Under the pieces are notes generated by a model, which worked only from the letters and a program-made list of their open reading frames with translations, did not search any database and was not told the origin of the DNA. 64,000 nt of DNA, taken from Peptococcaceae bacterium BICA1-8 (GTDB taxonomy: Bacteria; Bacillota; Peptococcia; Peptococcales; BICA1-8). Below, piece by piece: positions 4,019 to 49,144 of this stretch. Position numbers and translations under genes: made by a program. Location: positions 11,767-75,766 of the forward strand of contig JUEF01000030.1 in assembly GCA_000802045.1 (NCBI GenBank). Direction: 5' to 3'. How positions within the stretch are numbered: the stretch's first letter is position 1; the number at the start of each line of letters is the position of its first letter.

Positions 4019-4440
4019 CTAAAGTACCCTCCCCATTTTTATTAGTTTATTAACACTATCATGACTCAACCTTTATCAAAACGAGAAATTCTATTTACCA
4101 TTGGAAATAACATTTTCTTCTATTCTTCATCTATTCATCTCTTAAACAAAGACAGGCAAAAATTGAACTCCCATATGTATGTGCCTTCTGCAGACGGTTC
4201 AGTACAACACAAGATTCATGAAGTTCTATATTCTTTTGTGCCATTTCAAAGGTCTCTCAGCTATTATGCTCCGAGGTCTTTTTTACTTTATTCATGGAAC
4301 ATCATAAATCTCTAATTTGTTATCTGACGGTTCGCCCTCATAGACTACCAAAAAGTTATTATTTGGGTGAAATCAGGAGCTTAGGTTTTGCTTGCAAATC
4401 TTAACCCCTAGCGAGCTGGCGTAGTCCATCAAAGGTGGAT

Positions 4441-6617: not shown

Positions 6618-7025
6618 CTCGTTTCTTAAATTAATGCTATTCTACACATTAGTTTAAATAAAGTAAATCTTTTCTTAAAATACATTAATATCTTAGGAAA
6701 TTCATGTTTTTACTTTCAATATTTAAACTTCATAGCATAAAATTTAGCATTAAACTTAAAAAACAGAAAGTGGCATTATATATTAGATATATCATATATA
6801 AAACCATAAGAAACTCTCAGAGGCAGACTCAGGTTGGGGTTGATGAGATAACAACCAACCAACTCTTCTAGACACAAGCCAAAATATAAAGGTAGTCTTA
6901 TCATTAGAACCATACAGTAAATGTGCTGTCTCAACCGTTCGTATAGAACTACTACAAATACACTTTGGCCAATGGCACCAAAGTAGCCCAAGTGCTACTT
7001 TTTTTTCGTAGTCTGCCGACTTTAA

Positions 7026-7245
7026 GATAACGTCCAAGCACTCACGACGCCGAGAGCCTTTGCTAGCTTACCCGGTATTGGAATAGGCTGTGGAAAGATT
7101 ACCGTACACCAGCTGGTCTGGCATTTTTTGGCCATGACTACTACGGCTTTCGCTTCCGGCATAATGTCCGCAGGATTGAAACCCGGCGGTGCTCAAGTAA
7201 AACGCTCCAAGGAAGCCACGCCCACTAGATCAGCCTGAAATTCTT
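7026..7245 (-). pseudogene. N-terminal fragment of an Fe-S oxidoreductase-like gene with an in-frame stop
   Basis: Frame reads FQADLVGVASLERFT*APPGFNPADIMPEAKAVVVMAKK. The ADLVG(V/I)A..ERF..AP.G..P.D..P.AK.V(V/I)V pattern is typical of N-termini in the epoxyqueuosine-reductase/reductive-dehalogenase-like Fe-S family. TGA at 7193-7195. No start codon. Confidence 0.4.
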
Positions 7246-7262
7246 TCTATCATGGATAATGT

Positions 7263-7952
7263 TCATAATCTTAAACACAAGGTTTTACTCTCACACTTTA
7301 TTTTTTTAACAAATTTCAAGTTAGATAATTCTATCGAACCTTCTAATTTGTTTTCACTAAATGGCCTAATTACAAAGCAGATTTCTCTAAACCCATTACT
7401 AGAATTAAATAAGTCTTTTAGCTTACAAAAAAAGATTGTTTCTGTAGGAGCTACAGGGATATTAATTTTATTTTCTAAATTTCCAAACTTCGCTTCAAGT
7501 ACAAAAGTTTTAATGTCTGTTGATTTACATTTAAAGCTCAAGTAGTATCCCTTATCATAATACTCTTCTAAATCATCGATACCTGTAATTACATAACTTA
7601 CCCAATTGTCTGAATTATCAGTGATATGATGATACTTTAATGCCAGTATGTTATTATTTGCGTATGCTTCAATTGTTCCTGGCAACTCATAACTAGTATA
7701 AATACCTCTTTTTTTGCCTAACCCATTTTCTATGTTAACTAACTTAGCTAATTCTAACGAAGTAAATTGAAAATCATCAAGTTCTCTTTCTTTTAAATTT
7801 TTAAATATTTCTCTTATACCACTTAAACTATTTAATATTTTTTTCTGAAATCTTTTAGAAAAAAAGAATACTACAGCCAGAATCATACTTAGAATCCCTA
7901 TCATATTAAGAAAAATACTACTTATATCACTAAATGATTTTAAAAAATGCAT
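7263..7952 (-). CDS. orphan membrane-anchored protein (N-terminal TM plus beta-rich domain)
   Basis: 229-aa AT-rich ORF with RBS AGGGGG upstream. No recognisable family. Confidence 0.5.
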   Translation of the reverse strand: MHFLKSFSDISSIFLNMIGILSMILAVVFFFSKRFQKKILNSLSGIREIFKNLKERELDDFQFTSLELAKLVNIENGLGKKRGIYTSYELPGTIEAYANNNILALKYHHITDNSDNWVSYVITGIDDLEEYYDKGYYLSFKCKSTDIKTFVLEAKFGNLENKINIPVAPTETIFFCKLKDLFNSSNGFREICFVIRPFSENKLEGSIELSNLKFVKKIKCESKTLCLRL

Positions 7953-7999: not shown

Positions 8000-8215
8000 A
8001 ATACCCTAGACGACTATTTCACATAACGATTGTGTTTTGCCGACGTCCTTGAGCCTTCAGGTGACCGCTCATGCCGGGGACCCTTTGGGTAAGCTAACAC
8101 GGGCACCGACTCGGTTGGTGAAAGGATGTGGCGCGCATGCCCCAAATCCCAGCTCAACGCGCCTTTACGGCAAAACTGGGTTATCGGATGGATGAGGCCG
8201 CAGCAAGAGCCGCAT
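8000..8215. other. GC-rich ORF-free structured segment (right-hand half of the split element)
   Basis: 9-bp long-range inverted repeat GTTTTGCCG (8034-8042) / CGGCAAAAC (8168-8176). Local hairpin GCCGC-ATGGAC-GCGGC. No credible reading frame. Confidence 0.4.
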
Positions 8216-8230
8216 GGACGCGGCGACCTT
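8216..8230. repeat. 15-bp direct repeat, copy 1 (GGACGCGGCGACCTT)
   Basis: 14/15 identical to 9030-9044. The two copies bracket the AT-rich two-ORF block. Confidence 0.8.
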
Positions 8231-8239
8231 TAATAGCAT

Positions 8240-8779
8240 TTATAAATCCAGTGTATTAAAAAATGCCTGTAGTTCCTCATTGCTTTTTTCATGCTTTATT
8301 CTATACTCATTAAATTCTTGTATAGGTAGGACAATCTTATATTTTTCTTGCTTAAAAATATTATTATTTCTTGTCGACACTATGAGCTTAAATTCAAAAT
8401 CGTTGATCCAATTAATTGTATTAAGATAATCCTCACGATTCGCACCTGATACTTCAAGATATATAATTAAAATCTTATTCACAGTTTTTTTTGGTTCCAA
8501 GACTATAGGGTATTTAACTTGCGTTTTGTGTTTCATAAATTCTAAAGGTGTAAAAATCTCTTCTTCAGACACAAAGTATTCCGTGAATTTGACATTAACC
8601 TTACTTAATAAAAATTCATCTTTAATTTTACTGAATTTTACTAATTCAACAATAATGTCTTCAATAATCCCAACATTATTACCAAAGTTATTAATAAACA
8701 AATTATAATTTACCATTAAATCAATATAGTTTTCTCCACAATCCTTAGCTTTAAAATGATATTGACGCAACGGAGACAC
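8240..8779 (-). CDS. orphan soluble protein
   Basis: 179-aa AT-rich ORF immediately downstream of the 66-aa membrane ORF. No recognisable motif. Confidence 0.45.
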   Translation of the reverse strand: MSPLRQYHFKAKDCGENYIDLMVNYNLFINNFGNNVGIIEDIIVELVKFSKIKDEFLLSKVNVKFTEYFVSEEEIFTPLEFMKHKTQVKYPIVLEPKKTVNKILIIYLEVSGANREDYLNTINWINDFEFKLIVSTRNNNIFKQEKYKIVLPIQEFNEYRIKHEKSNEELQAFFNTLDL

Positions 8780-8787
8780 ACTGACAT

Positions 8788-8988
8788 TTATTTCTGAGAA
8801 TTTTCAAGATATATTCTATAATTTGCAACAATAAATCCTATTAATAGAATTGCAGTAAATAAATATGATGGCAACTCAATATTTCCATAATATGTTATTA
8901 GCATTCCAATGACATCTAACCCTAGACATATAAGCAAAACACTATTTTTAATAATAAGTGACAAATAGGTAACTAATTTATTCATCAA
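8788..8988 (-). CDS. small two-TM membrane protein
   Basis: 66-aa ORF with two hydrophobic helices and RBS AAAGGAG upstream. Confidence 0.45.
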   Translation of the reverse strand: MMNKLVTYLSLIIKNSVLLICLGLDVIGMLITYYGNIELPSYLFTAILLIGFIVANYRIYLENSQK

Positions 8989-9029
8989 AAACTCCTTTTC
9001 TGTACTTTATTTAATAAACAGCCGTTACA

Positions 9030-9044
9030 GGACGCGGCGGCCTT
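9030..9044. repeat. 15-bp direct repeat, copy 2 (GGACGCGGCGGCCTT)
   Basis: See 8216-8230. Confidence 0.8.
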
Positions 9045-9890
9045 GCCTCATCTTTCCGAGTCATGGTAGACGCATCGGTTACCCGACGCACCGGGCTCCT
9101 CGAGAATACTCCCTTCCGTAATCGGCTATCATTAATAGCCTCTTGGTATTTTTCGCAGTGAGGTTGGCACCATTTATCCAGCCCTGCATGTCCGGTAGGT
9201 GTTTCCTTTGCAAATTGCGTATTCCCGTTAATCCCTTCCCCATGTAGCCGGCTCTCTCGACCTCATAGTAATATGGATTAATCCGACTTCCTATAGGTCT
9301 TCGGTCAGCCTCTTTGTCGATTGCACATTCCTACCAATAATATTTATATAACTGGAACCTATAGGATCTCCCAAGTTCCGGATACTTCTCTCCATACATG
9401 CCACGTTCTAGGACCCCGACAGACCCTCCAAAATCTCACCAATAGCGATTTTTTTGTATTACTTCCGTGACATTAAACACGTCGTCATCTGCATTTTCCT
9501 CTGTTTCCAGAGTCCACGGTTAACGGGGCTCAATTGTGCTTCAGGGATTACGGTCTCCCTTATGGCCTATATGGTTCTCTAGGTAAAGAATCTAAGCGAT
9601 TCACACAAAAACTAAAAAAAGGTTTTTGGTTCTCTGCTTATGTGTACATTCACCTAGCAGTTACCAGTTTCGGCGCAACACTCGATATGGGTGGCTGGTT
9701 AGGCCTTGCCCAACAGGGACTTTCACCCTGCAAGAAGTACCAAACTTCGCTTGGCGTACTAACGTTCCCGGCATTCCCGACGCTCACCAACCTTAACGCC
9801 TTACCCAATAGGGTGAGTGTGGTCCGGCATGCTACTTGATTAAACTATACCGGACCCGTAAGTGGGAATGGACGTGTTAGCCGGGGTAGC
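9045..9890 (-). ncRNA. GC-rich ORF-free structured segment, family unassigned (degenerate group-II-intron-like or other large ncRNA, or decayed DNA)
   Basis: About 0.85 kb with no credible ORF in six frames and many local hairpins. On the minus strand, GAGCCCGGU-GCGUCGG-GUAA-CCGAUGC (9058-9098) resembles a domain-5-like GNRA hairpin with an AGC base. GGGUGAAAGUCCC lies near 9717-9729. Confidence 0.3.
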
Positions 9891-9895
9891 ATCTT

Positions 9896-10684
9896 TTAAA
9901 AAGGTATATCCTCTTTTCGTATCAAAAGTGAATCTACAAGATAAGTAATATAGGCAGCAACTAAATTTAAAATCAGTTCCGCCTCAGTTTCTGTAACTTT
10001 GGATCCTTCAGGAGATGAATGTGCAACGCCCTGACTTTCACCCCGAAAAGCATATATTTTAATAATACTTTCAGTAATAGTGGGGGGAATATTGATTAAA
10101 TCCGATTTTTGGAGTTCCCGAATTGCCTTGGTAAAATTTACTGACGCCTTCTTACCCGTAATGATTTCTATACAAGACTCTAATGCACACATAGATTCCT
10201 TTACACAATTAGTTAAATCCGGAATAGGCTTTTCCCCGAAAAACTTAAGTGCCTTATTATAATGTTGCCTCACTAAATATAATTCGCTGTTGGAGAGGAT
10301 TGCCCCCATTCTCTTAATACTCTTCTGTGTATGTAGTCTTCCTTCTCTCTCAAACTGTCCATTGTTAAATCTATAATCTAAATTTTCTTCACATAACAAA
10401 TTATTAATTTCATGTGTAAAATACTCTTTTACTTCTTCAATAGATACTAATATCTGCATTAATTGGTTATCACGGACATCAGTTAAAAGTATTGCATATA
10501 TTCGTTCACAAAGTGAATATATCTTGTACCATTCTACACTTTGAAGCAACCAATTAAACTCATCTAGGTAAGTTTGAAAATTGTTATAGCCTTTTTCTAC
10601 CCGTCCAAGTCGATATAACTCATTAAGAACAGTTCCCCATGCCGAGGAGTTATTGTTTTCTGCAATATAACGCCGATGTACCAT
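9896..10684 (-). CDS. AbiJ-N-terminal-domain / HEPN-like (Abi_C-like) protein, possibly 5'-truncated
   Basis: 262 aa. The C-terminal FRGESQGVAHSS resembles the R-x(n)-H HEPN/Abi_C motif. The frame is open upstream (LFEKPISDDFPNTVRIGLSFIIED) but has no start codon there. Confidence 0.45.
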   Translation of the reverse strand: MVHRRYIAENNNSSAWGTVLNELYRLGRVEKGYNNFQTYLDEFNWLLQSVEWYKIYSLCERIYAILLTDVRDNQLMQILVSIEEVKEYFTHEINNLLCEENLDYRFNNGQFEREGRLHTQKSIKRMGAILSNSELYLVRQHYNKALKFFGEKPIPDLTNCVKESMCALESCIEIITGKKASVNFTKAIRELQKSDLINIPPTITESIIKIYAFRGESQGVAHSSPEGSKVTETEAELILNLVAAYITYLVDSLLIRKEDIPF

Positions 10685-16986: not shown

Positions 16987-17034
16987 CAAAAGGGCGACTA
17001 TAAACTATTGACCATAGACCATAGACTATTATAA

Positions 17035-17075
17035 GTCACCAGTCACTAGTGACTAGTCACTAGTCACTAGTCACT
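17035..17075. repeat. ACTAGT-containing heptamer tandem array (CACTAGT/GACTAGT)
   Basis: gtcaccagtcactagtgactagtcactagtcactagtcact, preceded by accatagaccatagactatt (17011-17030). Confidence 0.85.
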
Positions 17076-17158
17076 TATTTACCCACTTCTCTTCATTCAC
17101 CTTTCCTCAAAATTATGCATATTCTATAGTGATAATTTTGAGGAAGGGTGATTTTTTT

Positions 17159-19381: not shown

Positions 19382-19406
19382 GATTGCTACTTATGAATCC
19401 GACAAA

Positions 19407-19440
19407 ACCACTAGTCACCAGTCACTAGTCACTAGCCACT
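19407..19440. repeat. ACTAGT-containing heptamer array
   Basis: accactagtcaccagtcactagtcactagccact. Confidence 0.8.
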
Positions 19441-19443
19441 TTT

Positions 19444-19764
19444 TTACAGATAGTCTTCCCGTACGGGTGAAAATACTTCAACTACTACAGAATCCTCTAA
19501 TACATCAACACTATGTACTGCCCCTCCAGGTATTGCCCAACTATCCCCTGGCTTTGCGCTAAATTCATTCCCATCAATTTTAAAAACCATACTGCCAGAA
19601 ATCATATAGCCCGTTTGCTCGTGGGGATGGCTATGCTCAGGAATTATACTCCCCTTATCTAAAAATACTTCAATTAGTAACGTTTTTTCCCCATGAGCCA
19701 AAGTCTTTCTTTTTACCCCCTCAACCATAGGAATAAAGCCTCTTTTTTCATTTTTAACGAACAT
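19444..19764 (-). CDS. cupin domain protein
   Basis: 106 aa with the cupin_2 motifs HSHPHEQTGY and GDSWAIPGGAVH. Confidence 0.8.
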   Translation of the reverse strand: MFVKNEKRGFIPMVEGVKRKTLAHGEKTLLIEVFLDKGSIIPEHSHPHEQTGYMISGSMVFKIDGNEFSAKPGDSWAIPGGAVHSVDVLEDSVVVEVFSPVREDYL

Positions 19765-20714: not shown

Positions 20715-20734
20715 GCATCACTCCTGTTTATTTT

Positions 20735-20767
20735 AGTTACTTGTGACTAGTTACTAGTGACTGGTGG
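20735..20767. repeat. ACTAGT-containing heptamer array
   Basis: agttacttgtgactagttactagtgactggtg, with related cagtgtccagtgaccag at 20808-20824. Confidence 0.75.
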
Positions 20768-20892
20768 GTTATTGAGGGTAAAATCTTAGGGTATCGTGCC
20801 CAGTTCTCAGTGTCCAGTGACCAGAAATAAATAACTTATTTAATAATATAACTCTAAATGGTTGTTTTTGCAATACATAATTTATAACAATC

Positions 20893-20965: not shown

Positions 20966-20989
20966 GGACGCGCAATGCGCGCCCCTACA
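20966..20989. repeat. GC hairpin ending CCCCTACA (CAATG variant)
   Basis: ggacgcgcaatgcgcgcccctaca. Same family as 44954-44977 and, inverted, 58767-58788. Confidence 0.8.
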
Positions 20990-26381: not shown

Positions 26382-26455
26382 TGGGCAGACATCGGGGGTC
26401 GGTGACCAGGGACCGGTGCCCGGTGTTCAGGGGACAGTTACTTTGGGGGCATATT

Positions 26456-26817
26456 ATTGCGTCTGATAGTTGCTATTTGGTTAATTTGTTGCGTCTGACA
26501 TTACTTCTTCGTTAAATTGTTGCGTCTGATTTACTTTGGGGCCATTCTCTTGCTTCTGACAAGTATTGTCATTGCGAAGGCGTTAACCTGTGGCAATCTC
26601 TGGGTCGGAGATCGCCACGCTACGCTCGCGATGACAGGATCACTAATGCGAACTAGGAAAGGAGATATACCTGCAAAAGCGCAGGAATATCCCCTTTATT
26701 GTGCGGTTAATTTGGGGGCAAAACTTTGCGTCTGACTAATACTGATTGGTTATTTGTTACGTCTAATCGGTTATCTAATTGGTCTAATAGTACTTCTAAG
26801 TGAGCATTTGCGTCTAA
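26456..26817. repeat. phased array of TTGCGTCTGA-type motifs (31-32-bp period)
   Basis: Copies start at 26456, 26488, 26519 and 26550, then 26725, 26756 and 26806. GTCATTGCGA...TCGCGATGAC inverted segment at 26568-26634. Confidence 0.7.
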
Positions 26818-26942: not shown

Positions 26943-27069
26943 GTAGGCTGTTAAAAAATATTAGATAGCTAGGCGCAAAAAGGGGGCAAAACCGGAGGCG
27001 TACTAAAGTACGTTGAGGATTTTGACCCCTTTTGGGTACGACGCTAGATGATGTTTTTTAGCAGCCTAC
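26943..27069. repeat. ~125-nt long-hairpin element, copy A
   Basis: Three-stem hairpin with conserved boxes AGCTAGGCG, CCGGAGGCGTA, TACGTTGAGGAT and ACGACGCTAG. It ends 3 nt from the stop codon at 27073. Confidence 0.75.
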
Positions 27070-31328: not shown

Positions 31329-31355
31329 CTTAAAATAAAACCTCCTTTTATTAAT

Positions 31356-31377
31356 GGCTAGTGGCTAGTCACTAGTC
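31356..31377. repeat. ACTAGT-containing heptamer array inside an operon spacer
   Basis: ggctagtggctagtcactagtc, between the RidA gene and the PLP-enzyme gene. Confidence 0.75.
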
Positions 31378-31415
31378 TTTATAATTCTCAATTTTTAAAT
31401 CTCAATTCTCAGTTG

Positions 31416-44953: not shown

Positions 44954-44977
44954 GGACGTGCAATGCACGCCCCTACC
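44954..44977. repeat. GC hairpin ending CCCCTACC
   Basis: ggacgtgcaatgcacgcccctacc. Confidence 0.8.
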
Positions 44978-44980
44978 TTC

Positions 44981-45025
44981 CACTAGTGACTAGTCACTAG
45001 TCACTAGTCACTAGTCACTAGTAAC
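44981..45025. repeat. ACTAGT-containing heptamer array (longest copy)
   Basis: cactagtgactagtcactagtcactagtcactagtcactagtaac. Confidence 0.9.
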
Positions 45026-45049
45026 AAATACAGAGGTGTTGAAATAATT

Positions 45050-46028: not shown

Positions 46029-46214
46029 CTAGGTCTGGACAATTGCTAATAAGGAAGATTTCGGGTTGGACAATTACTATGAGGGCAAATTATTGCGTCT
46101 GACAAAAATCAAAAAAAATAGGCTTATGCCTATTTTATAAACAATTTTTTTTAATATCAAAGCTTGTGTCAGACGTAAGAGCAAAACCTATGAATAACTG
46201 TCAAACGCACTAGC
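46029..46214. repeat. second phased GTCTGACA-type array, with inverted copies beyond a hairpin
   Basis: ggtctggaca (46032), gggttggaca (46063) and gcgtctgaca (46095), at 31-32-bp spacing. Inverted gtcagacg (46169) and gtcaaacg (46200). Confidence 0.6.
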
Positions 46215-49003: not shown

Positions 49004-49024
49004 AGGGGTCTGATTCGTTGGGTT

Positions 49025-49144
49025 GGGTGCTCAAAAGTGGTAGATAGCTAGGCATATTTTAAGCCCAAGACCGCAGGCGTATATTAATACGTTGAGGATC
49101 TTGGGCTTAAAATTAACGACGCTAGGTGCCGCTTTTCAGCACCC
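49025..49144. repeat. ~125-nt long-hairpin element, copy B
   Basis: Same conserved boxes as copy A with different but self-complementary stems. It ends 2 nt from the copZ stop codon. Confidence 0.75.

Follow-up and report, generated by a model that had tools for sequence, protein, structure and literature searches.

A probable integron-type gene cassette and a group II intron relic in an eroded chromosomal array of a Peptococcaceae bacterium

Integrons are the closest described counterparts of the locus reported here. Their attC recombination sites are imperfect inverted repeats in which a 5' box ending in AAC (R'') and a 3' box starting with GTT (R') enclose inner L boxes, an unpaired spacer and a variable loop, usually over 57-141 nucleotides (nt). 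Crossover in integrons takes place at G|TT of R'; what follows the G is therefore part of the next cassette, as the partner of that cassette's own R''. We analysed 64,000 nt from Peptococcaceae bacterium BICA1-8, a metagenome-assembled genome (MAG) of the phylum Bacillota (GenBank assembly GCA_000802045.1, contig JUEF01000030.1, positions 11,767 to 75,766; this whole stretch is called the window, and coordinates without a locus name refer to it). Within it, an AT-rich block between two 15-nt direct repeats (8216-8230 and 9030-9044) is in all probability part of an integron-type gene cassette, lying in an eroded chromosomal array that has no integrase nearby. The relevant features are all on the minus strand and are described 5' to 3' on that strand.

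The phylum of the host sets this locus apart from known integrons. These are reported to be near-absent from Bacillota, with one complete integron and a few clusters of attC sites lacking integron integrases (CALIN) reported from Firmicutes (PMC9024848), yet Desulfitobacterium, Paenibacillus and several Clostridia-type MAGs carry the recombinase-headed arrays described below. The window array, having no integrase, resembles a CALIN. Integron integrases are defined by an IntI-specific domain, which is held to be necessary for attC recombination (PMC8138268; bioRxiv 10.1101/2022.02.06.479319). Group II introns are also known from integrons: those of the IIC-attC class insert at R'' of the bottom strand and run against the direction in which the cassettes are transcribed (PMC3001079), and introns of group IIB occur in the arrays and CALINs of halophiles, one of them just downstream of an attC site and in cassette orientation (PMC7923331). 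Sedentary chromosomal integrons store anti-phage cassettes, including the AbiJ-like Taranis (bioRxiv 10.1101/2024.07.02.601686). Finally, the DUF1874 motif (Weinberg et al. 2017) has been proposed as an unusual attC site, and no integrase was found for its runs (PMC5737381). Our sites are like that motif in being multi-stem structured elements in consecutive intergenic regions, but they differ from it in sequence and structure, have no Rfam match and belong with related arrays that do have an integrase. In the literature covered, which was incomplete, no description was found of these Bacillota arrays, of a short integrase accompanying attC arrays or of the hairpin frame reported below.

An earlier note, made from the letters of the window, had read the block as a two-gene insertion that splits one GC-rich structured element and leaves a target-site duplication. 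Its measurements hold. The repeats GGACGCGGCGACCTT (8216-8230) and GGACGCGGCGGCCTT (9030-9044), given as plus-strand sequence, lie where the note had placed them and are identical at 14 of 15 positions. They are the only matches to the 15-mer in the 64-kb window even with up to two mismatches allowed (chance expectation 0.01). The GC content is 24-32% in the block interior and 41-55% in either flank, and the octamers GATGAGGC (8191-8198) and GCCTCATC (9045-9052) were likewise found in their places. Scans for protein families, open reading frames (ORFs) and repeats found no transposase, integrase or terminal inverted repeats within or near the block, and no promoter-like site was found directly upstream of the cassette ORF on its own strand; both points agree with the note. 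The GC-rich stretches outside the repeats are free of ORFs, as it had claimed, but same-strand ORFs at 9896-10684 and 7263-7952 bound them. The block carries none of the marks of an insertion sequence (IS) or transposon, namely a transposase, terminal inverted repeats and a duplication made by insertion, the repeat being a hairpin pair that occurs throughout a family of cassettes. Searched for DNA similarity, the whole region matched nothing in phages and, among plasmids, no more than a 91-nt piece of intron in one from Catenovulum.

What had been taken for one structured element split in two proved to be two attC-like sites and the relic of a group II intron. Site X, upstream of the gene (9760-9895), was assigned from the order of its motifs and the pairing of its L boxes. 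It consists of R'' with its extension, AAGATGCTACCCCGGCTAAC (9895-9876), L'', CCATTCCCAC (9871-9862), L', GTCGGGAATGCC (9781-9770), and the R' core CGTTA (9764-9760), and it has the architecture, and in part the sequence, of sites in three related arrays (L011, L018 and L046). Site Z, downstream of the gene (8009-8198), comprises R'' with its extension, GCCTCATCCATCCGATAAC (8198-8180), L'', GTTTTGCCG (8176-8168), a long variable terminal structure, L', CGGCAAAAC (8042-8034), and R', CG|TTATGTGAAATAGTCGTC (8028-8009); its 3' frame is common to 16 other cassettes. Both sites present R'', L'', loop, L' and R' in the expected order, with L boxes of 9-10 base pairs (bp), and the attC architecture is thus found in X and Z as it is in the aligned sites of related arrays.

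The cassette itself begins with the outer extension of R', TCGGAAAGATGAGGC (9045-9059), which is separated from the R' core of site X by the intron, contains GCCTCATC (9045-9052 on the plus strand) and is identical to the 5' frame of the 16 other cassettes. Once the intron is removed, R' reads CG|TTA-TCGGA-AA-GATGAGGC and the R'' side reads GCCTCATC-CA-TCCGA-TAAC, and the two cassette ends, TTA-TCGGAAAGATGAGGC and GCCTCATCCATCCGATAA, are complementary at 16 of 18 positions (the R' extension at 9045-9059 against 8198-8181). The octamers, which the earlier note had joined as the halves of an interrupted pre-existing hairpin, are the outer parts of the cassette's own R' and R'' boxes. By analogy with integrons, they would be the outermost part of its recombination site and would meet in an excised circle rather than mark an empty target; it is the division of the array at G|TT, the same as in integrons, that makes the site look split.

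The same organisation is seen on a larger scale in the complete chromosome of Desulfitobacterium sp. Sab5 (L018; NZ_CP172056.1, about 2.392-2.41 Mb), where a tyrosine recombinase heads a row of at least 12 ORFs on its own strand, each with a GC-rich spacer of 110-330 nt behind it. In these spacers ...ATAAC and 1-3 unpaired nt precede a stem of 10-13 bp whose two strands enclose a variable loop, and about 5 unpaired nt separate the second strand from ACGTTAT...; the sites mostly measure 68-73 nt from TAAC to GTTA. This is the attC layout: R'' ends in AAC, R' starts with GTT, and between them lie a spacer that stays unpaired, the L box and a terminal structure that varies. As in integrons, such a palindrome stands after each ORF and its structure is kept by covariation, not sequence. 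Among 12 aligned sites neither TAAC nor GTTA varies, and 92.9% of cells are paired, against 74.9% in shuffles, none of 500 shuffles being as high. The L box is 90.7% paired, with compensatory changes in 10 of its 13 pairs, and sliding the partner by 1-3 columns lowers pairing to 21-44%. Unlike the canonical 7-bp R box, R pairing typically extends over 9 bp, a 2-nt mismatch and 7-8 bp more, or about 18-20 bp in all. The sites also differ from those of known integrons in being long and GC-rich within an AT-rich genome.

Cassette ends pair across the ORF as crossover at G|TT predicts. In L018, the 20 nt that start at TTA upstream of an ORF, set against the reverse complement of the 20 nt that end in TAA downstream of it, match at 9-17 positions (mean 14.3), compared with 8.9 of 20 for the two ends of one spacer and 9.5 of 20 for non-partner pairs. 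Partner pairs in two further arrays, L043 and L023, reach 17-19 of 20. Partner pairing hence sets the cassette boundary at G|TT, where the crossover point would lie as well. The arrays further resemble those of integrons in being built from promoter-less, single-ORF units in one orientation, the window cassette being one such gene with a frameshift.

Complete integron arrays are headed by a tyrosine recombinase, and a recombinase adjoins the array in L011, L018, L043 and L056. In L011, a contig from IMG/VR, it is followed by three unrelated same-strand ORFs with GC-rich elements of about 240 nt between them, the last of which is interrupted by an intron. With the L011 recombinase as query, at least 556 relatives were found among GTDB species-representative genomes. 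The relatives at loci L013-L092 are 47-62% identical to it and all about 255-262 aa long, without insertion; the hosts of the relatives include Bacillota, Nitrospirae, Bacteroidota, Ignavibacteriota, Atribacteria, Spirochaetota and several archaeal MAGs. In about 15 of 80 loci a crude scan placed at least two co-oriented attC-like sites downstream. Behind homologues from Ignavibacteriota, Nitrospirae, Atribacteria, Bacteroidota and an Altarchaeum MAG lie arrays whose sites look canonical (..GCCTAAC...GTTAGGC..). The recombinase matches NF040815 ('site-specific tyrosine recombinase/integron integrase') end to end over 263 positions, with 246.8 bits against a cut-off of 220, and TIGR02249 with 219, below the cut-off of 265. 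It is oriented in the same direction as the cassettes, which distinguishes it from the integrases of known integrons.

The junction downstream of the L011 recombinase, TTAAAACAAAAG|TTAT, resembles that of class 1 attI1, CTAAAACAAAG|TTA. This junction lies at about 5790-5830 of L011 on the minus strand (GCGTTAAAACAAAAG|TTATCGG), and its likeness to the class 1 attI1 core at 170-200 of L107 (GCCCTAAAACAAAG|TTATGC) is close. Upstream of the recombinase, the end of the L011 contig (7200-8456) is an odd, GC-rich and purine-rich stretch that is poor in ORFs. A 19-nt match in a further IMG/VR contig (L012) sits in a coding region and was set aside as a chance match.

The direct repeat that first drew attention to the block belongs to two hairpins that frame the gene. 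The downstream hairpin, hp2 (8209-8230), reads AAGGTC GCCGC GTCCAT GCGGC, followed by the linker TCTTGCTGCG, and holds the repeat copy at 8216-8230; the upstream one, hp1 (9021-9044), is a degenerate copy, AAGGCCGCCGC GTCCT GTAACGGCTG, and holds the copy at 9030-9044. A metagenome scan for the 5' junction of the window cassette returned 14 loci, which together with L006 and L011 give 16 further cassettes with the same frame. The consensus in these is GGCCGCCGC GTCCT GCGGCGG for hp1 and GGGTGCGAC GTCCT GTCGCAC at the hp2 position. The 5' part of the frame runs TTATCGGAAAGATGAGGC-NNN-GGCCGCCGC GTCCT GCGGCGG and leads into a variable ribosome-binding site (RBS) and ORF, while the 3' part runs AGGGTGCGAC GTCCT GTCGCAC TCTGGCTTCGGGGGG CCTCATCCWTCCGATAAC and leads into unrelated L-box and loop sequences. 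The ORFs of the 16 cassettes fall into 11 unrelated families.

In most of these cassettes hp1 and hp2, each a self-complementary sequence, are identical at only about 9 of 15 positions. In the window the two happen to be alike, hp1 being itself slightly degenerate. The 15-nt repeat is the shared 5' arm and loop, GTCC(A)T, of two paralogous hairpins that form part of a conserved ORF frame, and its interpretation as a target-site duplication does not stand. The loop GTCC(A/G)T, which lies on the ORF's sense strand in every case, is closed by at least ten different stem sequences that covary (L018, L011, L006, L016, L017, L033 and the window). Such covariation around a fixed loop points to a function as a folded single strand, and our guess is that the hairpins are single-strand signals, in either RNA or single-stranded DNA. 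They match no Rfam family, and two extra conserved hairpins framing the ORF are a further difference from integrons.

Two other explanations start from these hairpins, and neither is probable. In the first, which is improbable, an ORF module bounded by two hairpins inserted into a single pre-existing hairpin and duplicated about 15 nt of it, as a target-site duplication or att repeat. Deleting the block with one repeat copy does leave a neat hairpin, GCCGC GTCCAT GCGGC, between GATGAGGC and GCCTCATC, and the hairpin pair exactly delimits the variable ORF region in the 17 cassettes. However, hp1 and hp2 are complete and have different arms in the 16 other cassettes, such that their fusion would not fold. 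The uninterrupted, empty-frame allele that this explanation calls for was sought and not found among about 100 loci, some L018 cassettes have no detectable hp1, and the outer complementary segments obey the integron G|TT rule.

The second, which we consider very improbable, holds that the hairpin-bracketed ORF is a non-autonomous IS200/IS605-like or other HUH single-strand element, situated within integron-like sites and mobilised in trans. That two similar hairpins point the same way on one strand, and that their loops are conserved and their stems covary, would suit such an element, as would the sharp end of conservation at the hairpins, and IS200/605 elements are known beside attC sites (PMC7923331). 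Against this, neither the window nor the arrays examined contain a TnpA or HUH gene, the unit always lies inside the R'/R'' frame in the loci seen, and free-standing homologues of the gene have no hairpins.

The reading as an integron-type cassette also has to account for the GC-rich flank upstream of the gene, most of which is a group II intron that the earlier reading had not recognised. The relic occupies 700 nt (9060-9759), starts GTACGCC and ends ...CTACCATGAC. Domains I-IV are recognisable from a match of 9723-9404 to the Rfam family RF02005 (group-II-D1D4-6; 83.1 bits, gathering score 49, E 1e-21), and the relic aligns end to end, from GTACGCC (9759) to CTACCATGAC (9060), with an ORF-less intron in the chromosome of Paenibacillus sp. 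FA6 (L056; NZ_CP188820.1). There, GTACGCC follows ...CCAAACGTTA, the intron ends ...CTACCGTGAC, and its last 75 nt match RF00029, the model of domains V and VI, with 36 bits (E 3e-5), which is under the gathering score of 40. Compared with L056, 34 nt are deleted from the window copy, which takes away the 3' strand of domain V together with the first part of domain VI. In agreement with this deletion, RF00029, searched at E<=10, matches nothing in the window, and domain V and the branch-point domain VI are accordingly incomplete in the relic. About 12 codons remain of its reverse transcriptase (RT) ORF (ATG at 9173), homologous to the start of the RT in L011, and no intron-encoded RT/maturase is present. 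The L011 intron, read from its 5' end as far as the RT, starts GTGCGCC right after ...CGGAACGTTA and carries a frameshifted RT.

Because the L056 alignment puts the intron's 3' terminus at 9060, the gene lies outside it, in the 3' exon, and the intron appears from its sequence to be a dead relic. That domain IV of the intron instead holds the gene as cargo other than an RT, with one half of the ribozyme in each GC-rich flank, was our first idea after the RF02005 match, which lies just upstream of the gene on the same strand and leaves the stem GATGAGGC/GCCTCATC bracketing the ORF where a domain IV stem is expected, but this is almost certainly wrong: it was dropped once L056 showed the intron to end upstream of the gene, no domain V or VI follows the gene (RF00029 at E<=10 and a hairpin scan), none of the 16 framed loci has an intron 5' end (GTGCG/GTACG) at its CGTTA junction, and the L011 intron interrupts a different attC site of its array. 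A truncated intron fused to a second attC remnant was also considered, then given up in favour of an intron that has no ORF, keeps both its ends and carries a deletion in domain V. A circularly permuted group II intron, a lead taken from PMC5737381, was rejected when no domain V-like hairpin was found upstream of domain I.

In three genomes this intron lineage sits directly after the ..AACGTTA of an attC-like R' and in cassette orientation (window 9760/9759, L011 2622/2621, L056 13837/13838). The sequence of the site, ..GGAACGTTA, may be a programmed homing target of the lineage, recognised through its exon-binding sites (EBS1/EBS2). Two of the three copies start GTACG rather than GTGCG, and two are ORF-less. 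Repeated occurrence at attC sites recalls the group II introns of integrons, among which truncated and degenerate copies are common, although the window copy differs in being ORF-less and lacking half of domain V. Bottom-strand insertion at R'' opposite to the cassettes, the mark of IIC-attC introns, is not seen in the window, L011 or L056; in contrast to that class, these introns are co-oriented with the cassettes and lie 3 nt after G|TT of R' in all three genomes, and their own class is named only by the Rfam D1D4-6 type.

The cassette gene (8240-8985) encodes a protein of about 246 aa with two transmembrane (TM) helices, a beta-sandwich and a C-terminal helix, and is frameshifted. The earlier note had counted two genes, of 66 and 179 aa. 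These ORFs are parts of one gene, because the 12 homologues found with the 179-aa ORF (49-79% identity) are all single proteins of 232-254 aa, their N-terminal third matching the 66-aa ORF, and read through the junction as ...NYRIYxENSPEINISVSPLRQ... (...ENSPEINISVSPLRQ...). The window has TCTC-AGAAATAAATGTCAGTGTGTCTCCG at this point, one C short of TCTC(C)AGAA near 8796. Judged from these sequences, the 1-nt deletion broke a single gene into the two ORFs; it may be either a real pseudogene mutation or an assembly error.

No family in Pfam, NCBIfam or PADLOC could be assigned to the protein, whose only PADLOC match is a weak one to '4TM effector' on the TM part (E 7e-4). Modelled with AlphaFold (pLDDT 80.8), its closest full-length homologue has two or three N-terminal helices, which make up the TM part, a beta-sandwich and a long C-terminal helix, and Foldseek matched the model to generic Ig-like domains only (TM-scores 0.2-0.37). 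Homologues are mostly free-standing genes in defence-type neighbourhoods, some next to OLD-TOPRIM and UvrD (Gabija-like) genes and others next to DarT/NADAR and AIPR, and these copies have neither GC-rich flanks nor hairpins. A cassette copy (L006) and a free copy (L007) are 83% identical in DNA over 775 nt; the homology begins 12 nt before the ATG and ends 16 nt past the stop codon, just short of hp2. A common frame round unrelated genes, together with such sharp boundaries of homology to free copies, offers a testable handle on the genesis of cassettes.

Directly upstream of site X lies a 262-aa ORF (9896-10684) that is a candidate defence gene of the AbiJ-like type (PADLOC PDC-S32, E 1.3e-33; Pfam AbiJ_NTD4, E 2e-7). 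The array resembles defence-storing integrons in this AbiJ-like neighbour and in the Gabija-like and DarT/NADAR genes beside homologues of the cassette gene, and both agree with the emerging view that cassette arrays store phage-defence genes. It differs from them in its host, which is no Vibrio, in its small size and decay, and in that a defence role of the two-TM/beta-sandwich protein is only putative.

If these parts function as their integron counterparts do, the cassette would start 3' of the G in CG|TTA of site X and run through TCGGAAAGATGAGGC, hp1, the RBS and gene, hp2 and GCCTCATCCATCCGATAAC into the body of site Z, where the G of CG|TTA would be its last base. A tyrosine recombinase would cut the folded att sites at G|TT and the unit would be excised as a circle, in which the two extensions pair and rebuild the cassette's own site, before the circle re-inserts at an attI or attC site. 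Expression would come from an upstream promoter, since the cassettes are promoter-less. In the window, the group II intron would have inserted 3 nt inside the 5' end of the cassette, right after ..AACGTTA, and later lost its RT gene and half of domain V, and could therefore no longer splice. The window copy is most likely a fossil, given its frameshifted gene, dead intron and degenerate neighbouring sites and the absence of an integrase from the window. The earlier note was right in spirit and wrong in mechanism: promoter-less cargo with an RBS, recombination specific to an att site and machinery out of view are all retained, while the target-site duplication and the split target are not. An apparent mobile cassette without machinery thus becomes explicable as a fossil integron-type cassette with a dead intron in its recombination site.

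Several observations weigh against this reading. Near-identical frames of 41 nt and 55 nt (about 96 nt together) surround unrelated ORFs and unrelated L-box and loop sequences, which a simple integron model does not predict, and the failure to find an empty frame in about 100 loci bears on this reading too. Sites X and Z measure 136 and 190 nt with the R'' extension; counted from TAAC to GTTA they are 121 and about 160 nt long. These lengths lie at the top of the usual attC range or beyond it. The covariance model of short sites misses both, which were assigned by eye from motif order and L-box pairing. Folding of the flanks as RNA or DNA was no better than that of shuffled sequence (z-scores of -0.6, -1.1 and +1.0), a measure that is uninformative for multi-part mosaics. 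The recombinases of L011, L018, L043, L056 and L037, aligned with IntI1, lack about 29 and 10 residues of the IntI-specific domain (the I2 helix region, around patch III), and the link between integrase and array could in principle be co-location only. The GC-rich patch at 7250-7000 and the upstream end of the array are left unexplained by the cassette model. What the sequences show is the anatomy, the homologies, the covariation and the way the arrays are organised; recombination activity, the position of the crossover and a role for the hairpins would follow from the anatomy by analogy with integrons.

The recombinase lacks the very domain by which integron integrases are defined and found, and arrays of this kind would therefore be scored as integrase-less or missed. 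The part for possible follow-up may be this wider pattern, in which an integrase without the IntI domain heads arrays of hairpin-framed cassettes. A tentative and on balance unlikely extension is that these arrays make up a widespread class of integrons that has been overlooked. Its integrases would be short and Xer-like, without the IntI domain, for which the extended R stems of the Bacillota sites may compensate, and in the Bacillota branch a conserved frame with two GTCC(A)T hairpins would mark the place where unrelated ORFs were swapped. If that were true, the hairpin frame could be a footprint of cassette generation, a long-standing question in the integron field.

The remainder of the array in the window is more decayed. 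No R'-type sequence was found upstream of the AbiJ-like ORF, where the region is AT-rich and has no site. Downstream of site Z, a same-strand ORF of 229 aa with an N-terminal TM helix and no family match (7263-7952) is probably the next cassette. The GC-rich patch beyond it (7250-7000) ends in what may be a degenerate R'-like remnant (GGACGTTATCTTAAAGTCGGCAGACTACG, 7007-7035), with a weak and uncertain covariance match at 7065-7028 (E 3.4). At the downstream end of this patch lies a palindrome resembling a bidirectional terminator (6961-7001; AAAGTAGCCCAAGTGCTACTTT between T and A runs), plausibly the end of the array's transcription unit. A lone partial R''-like end occurs at about 4322-4335. 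Near the start of the window are a short attC-like site after a metallophosphoesterase ORF (427-497; covariance model R1, 27.8 bits, E 2e-4) and another with a poorly conserved 5' half (31-97; R1, 19.5 bits, E 0.03), which has a BLAST match to the L006 site. The minus strand from about 10.7 kb to the start of the window may be one eroded array, interleaved with LysE, Lrp/AsnC and membrane-protein genes, because the partial R'' near 4335, the degenerate 7250-7000 patch and the sites at 497-427 and 97-31 are spread along it. Unlike a complete integron, it has no integrase next to it in the window: a tblastn search with the L011 recombinase found nothing, and Phage_integrase is not among the best 25 of the 69 families in the ORF survey.

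The rest of the window encodes ordinary chromosomal metabolism and contains several repeats. Tandem runs of the heptamer AGTCACT occupy intergenic positions at 17020-17088, 19406-19460, 20728-20768, 31339-31379 and 44971-45039, and a conserved palindromic 23-mer, GGACGCGCAATGCGCGCCCCTAC, at 20966, 44954 and 58771 adjoins some of them; the two may form a genome-specific repeat family. Five or six copies of a 29-35-nt repeat ending TTGCGTCTGA, three of them spaced by about 31 nt, occur at 26432-26735 and 46068-46102, and could be iteron-like or binding-site repeats. A segment of about 80 nt, with no Rfam match at the gathering threshold, is present twice, 22 kb apart (26943-27024 and 49022-49103), its second copy lying within an inverted repeat with 46-nt arms (49025-49144).

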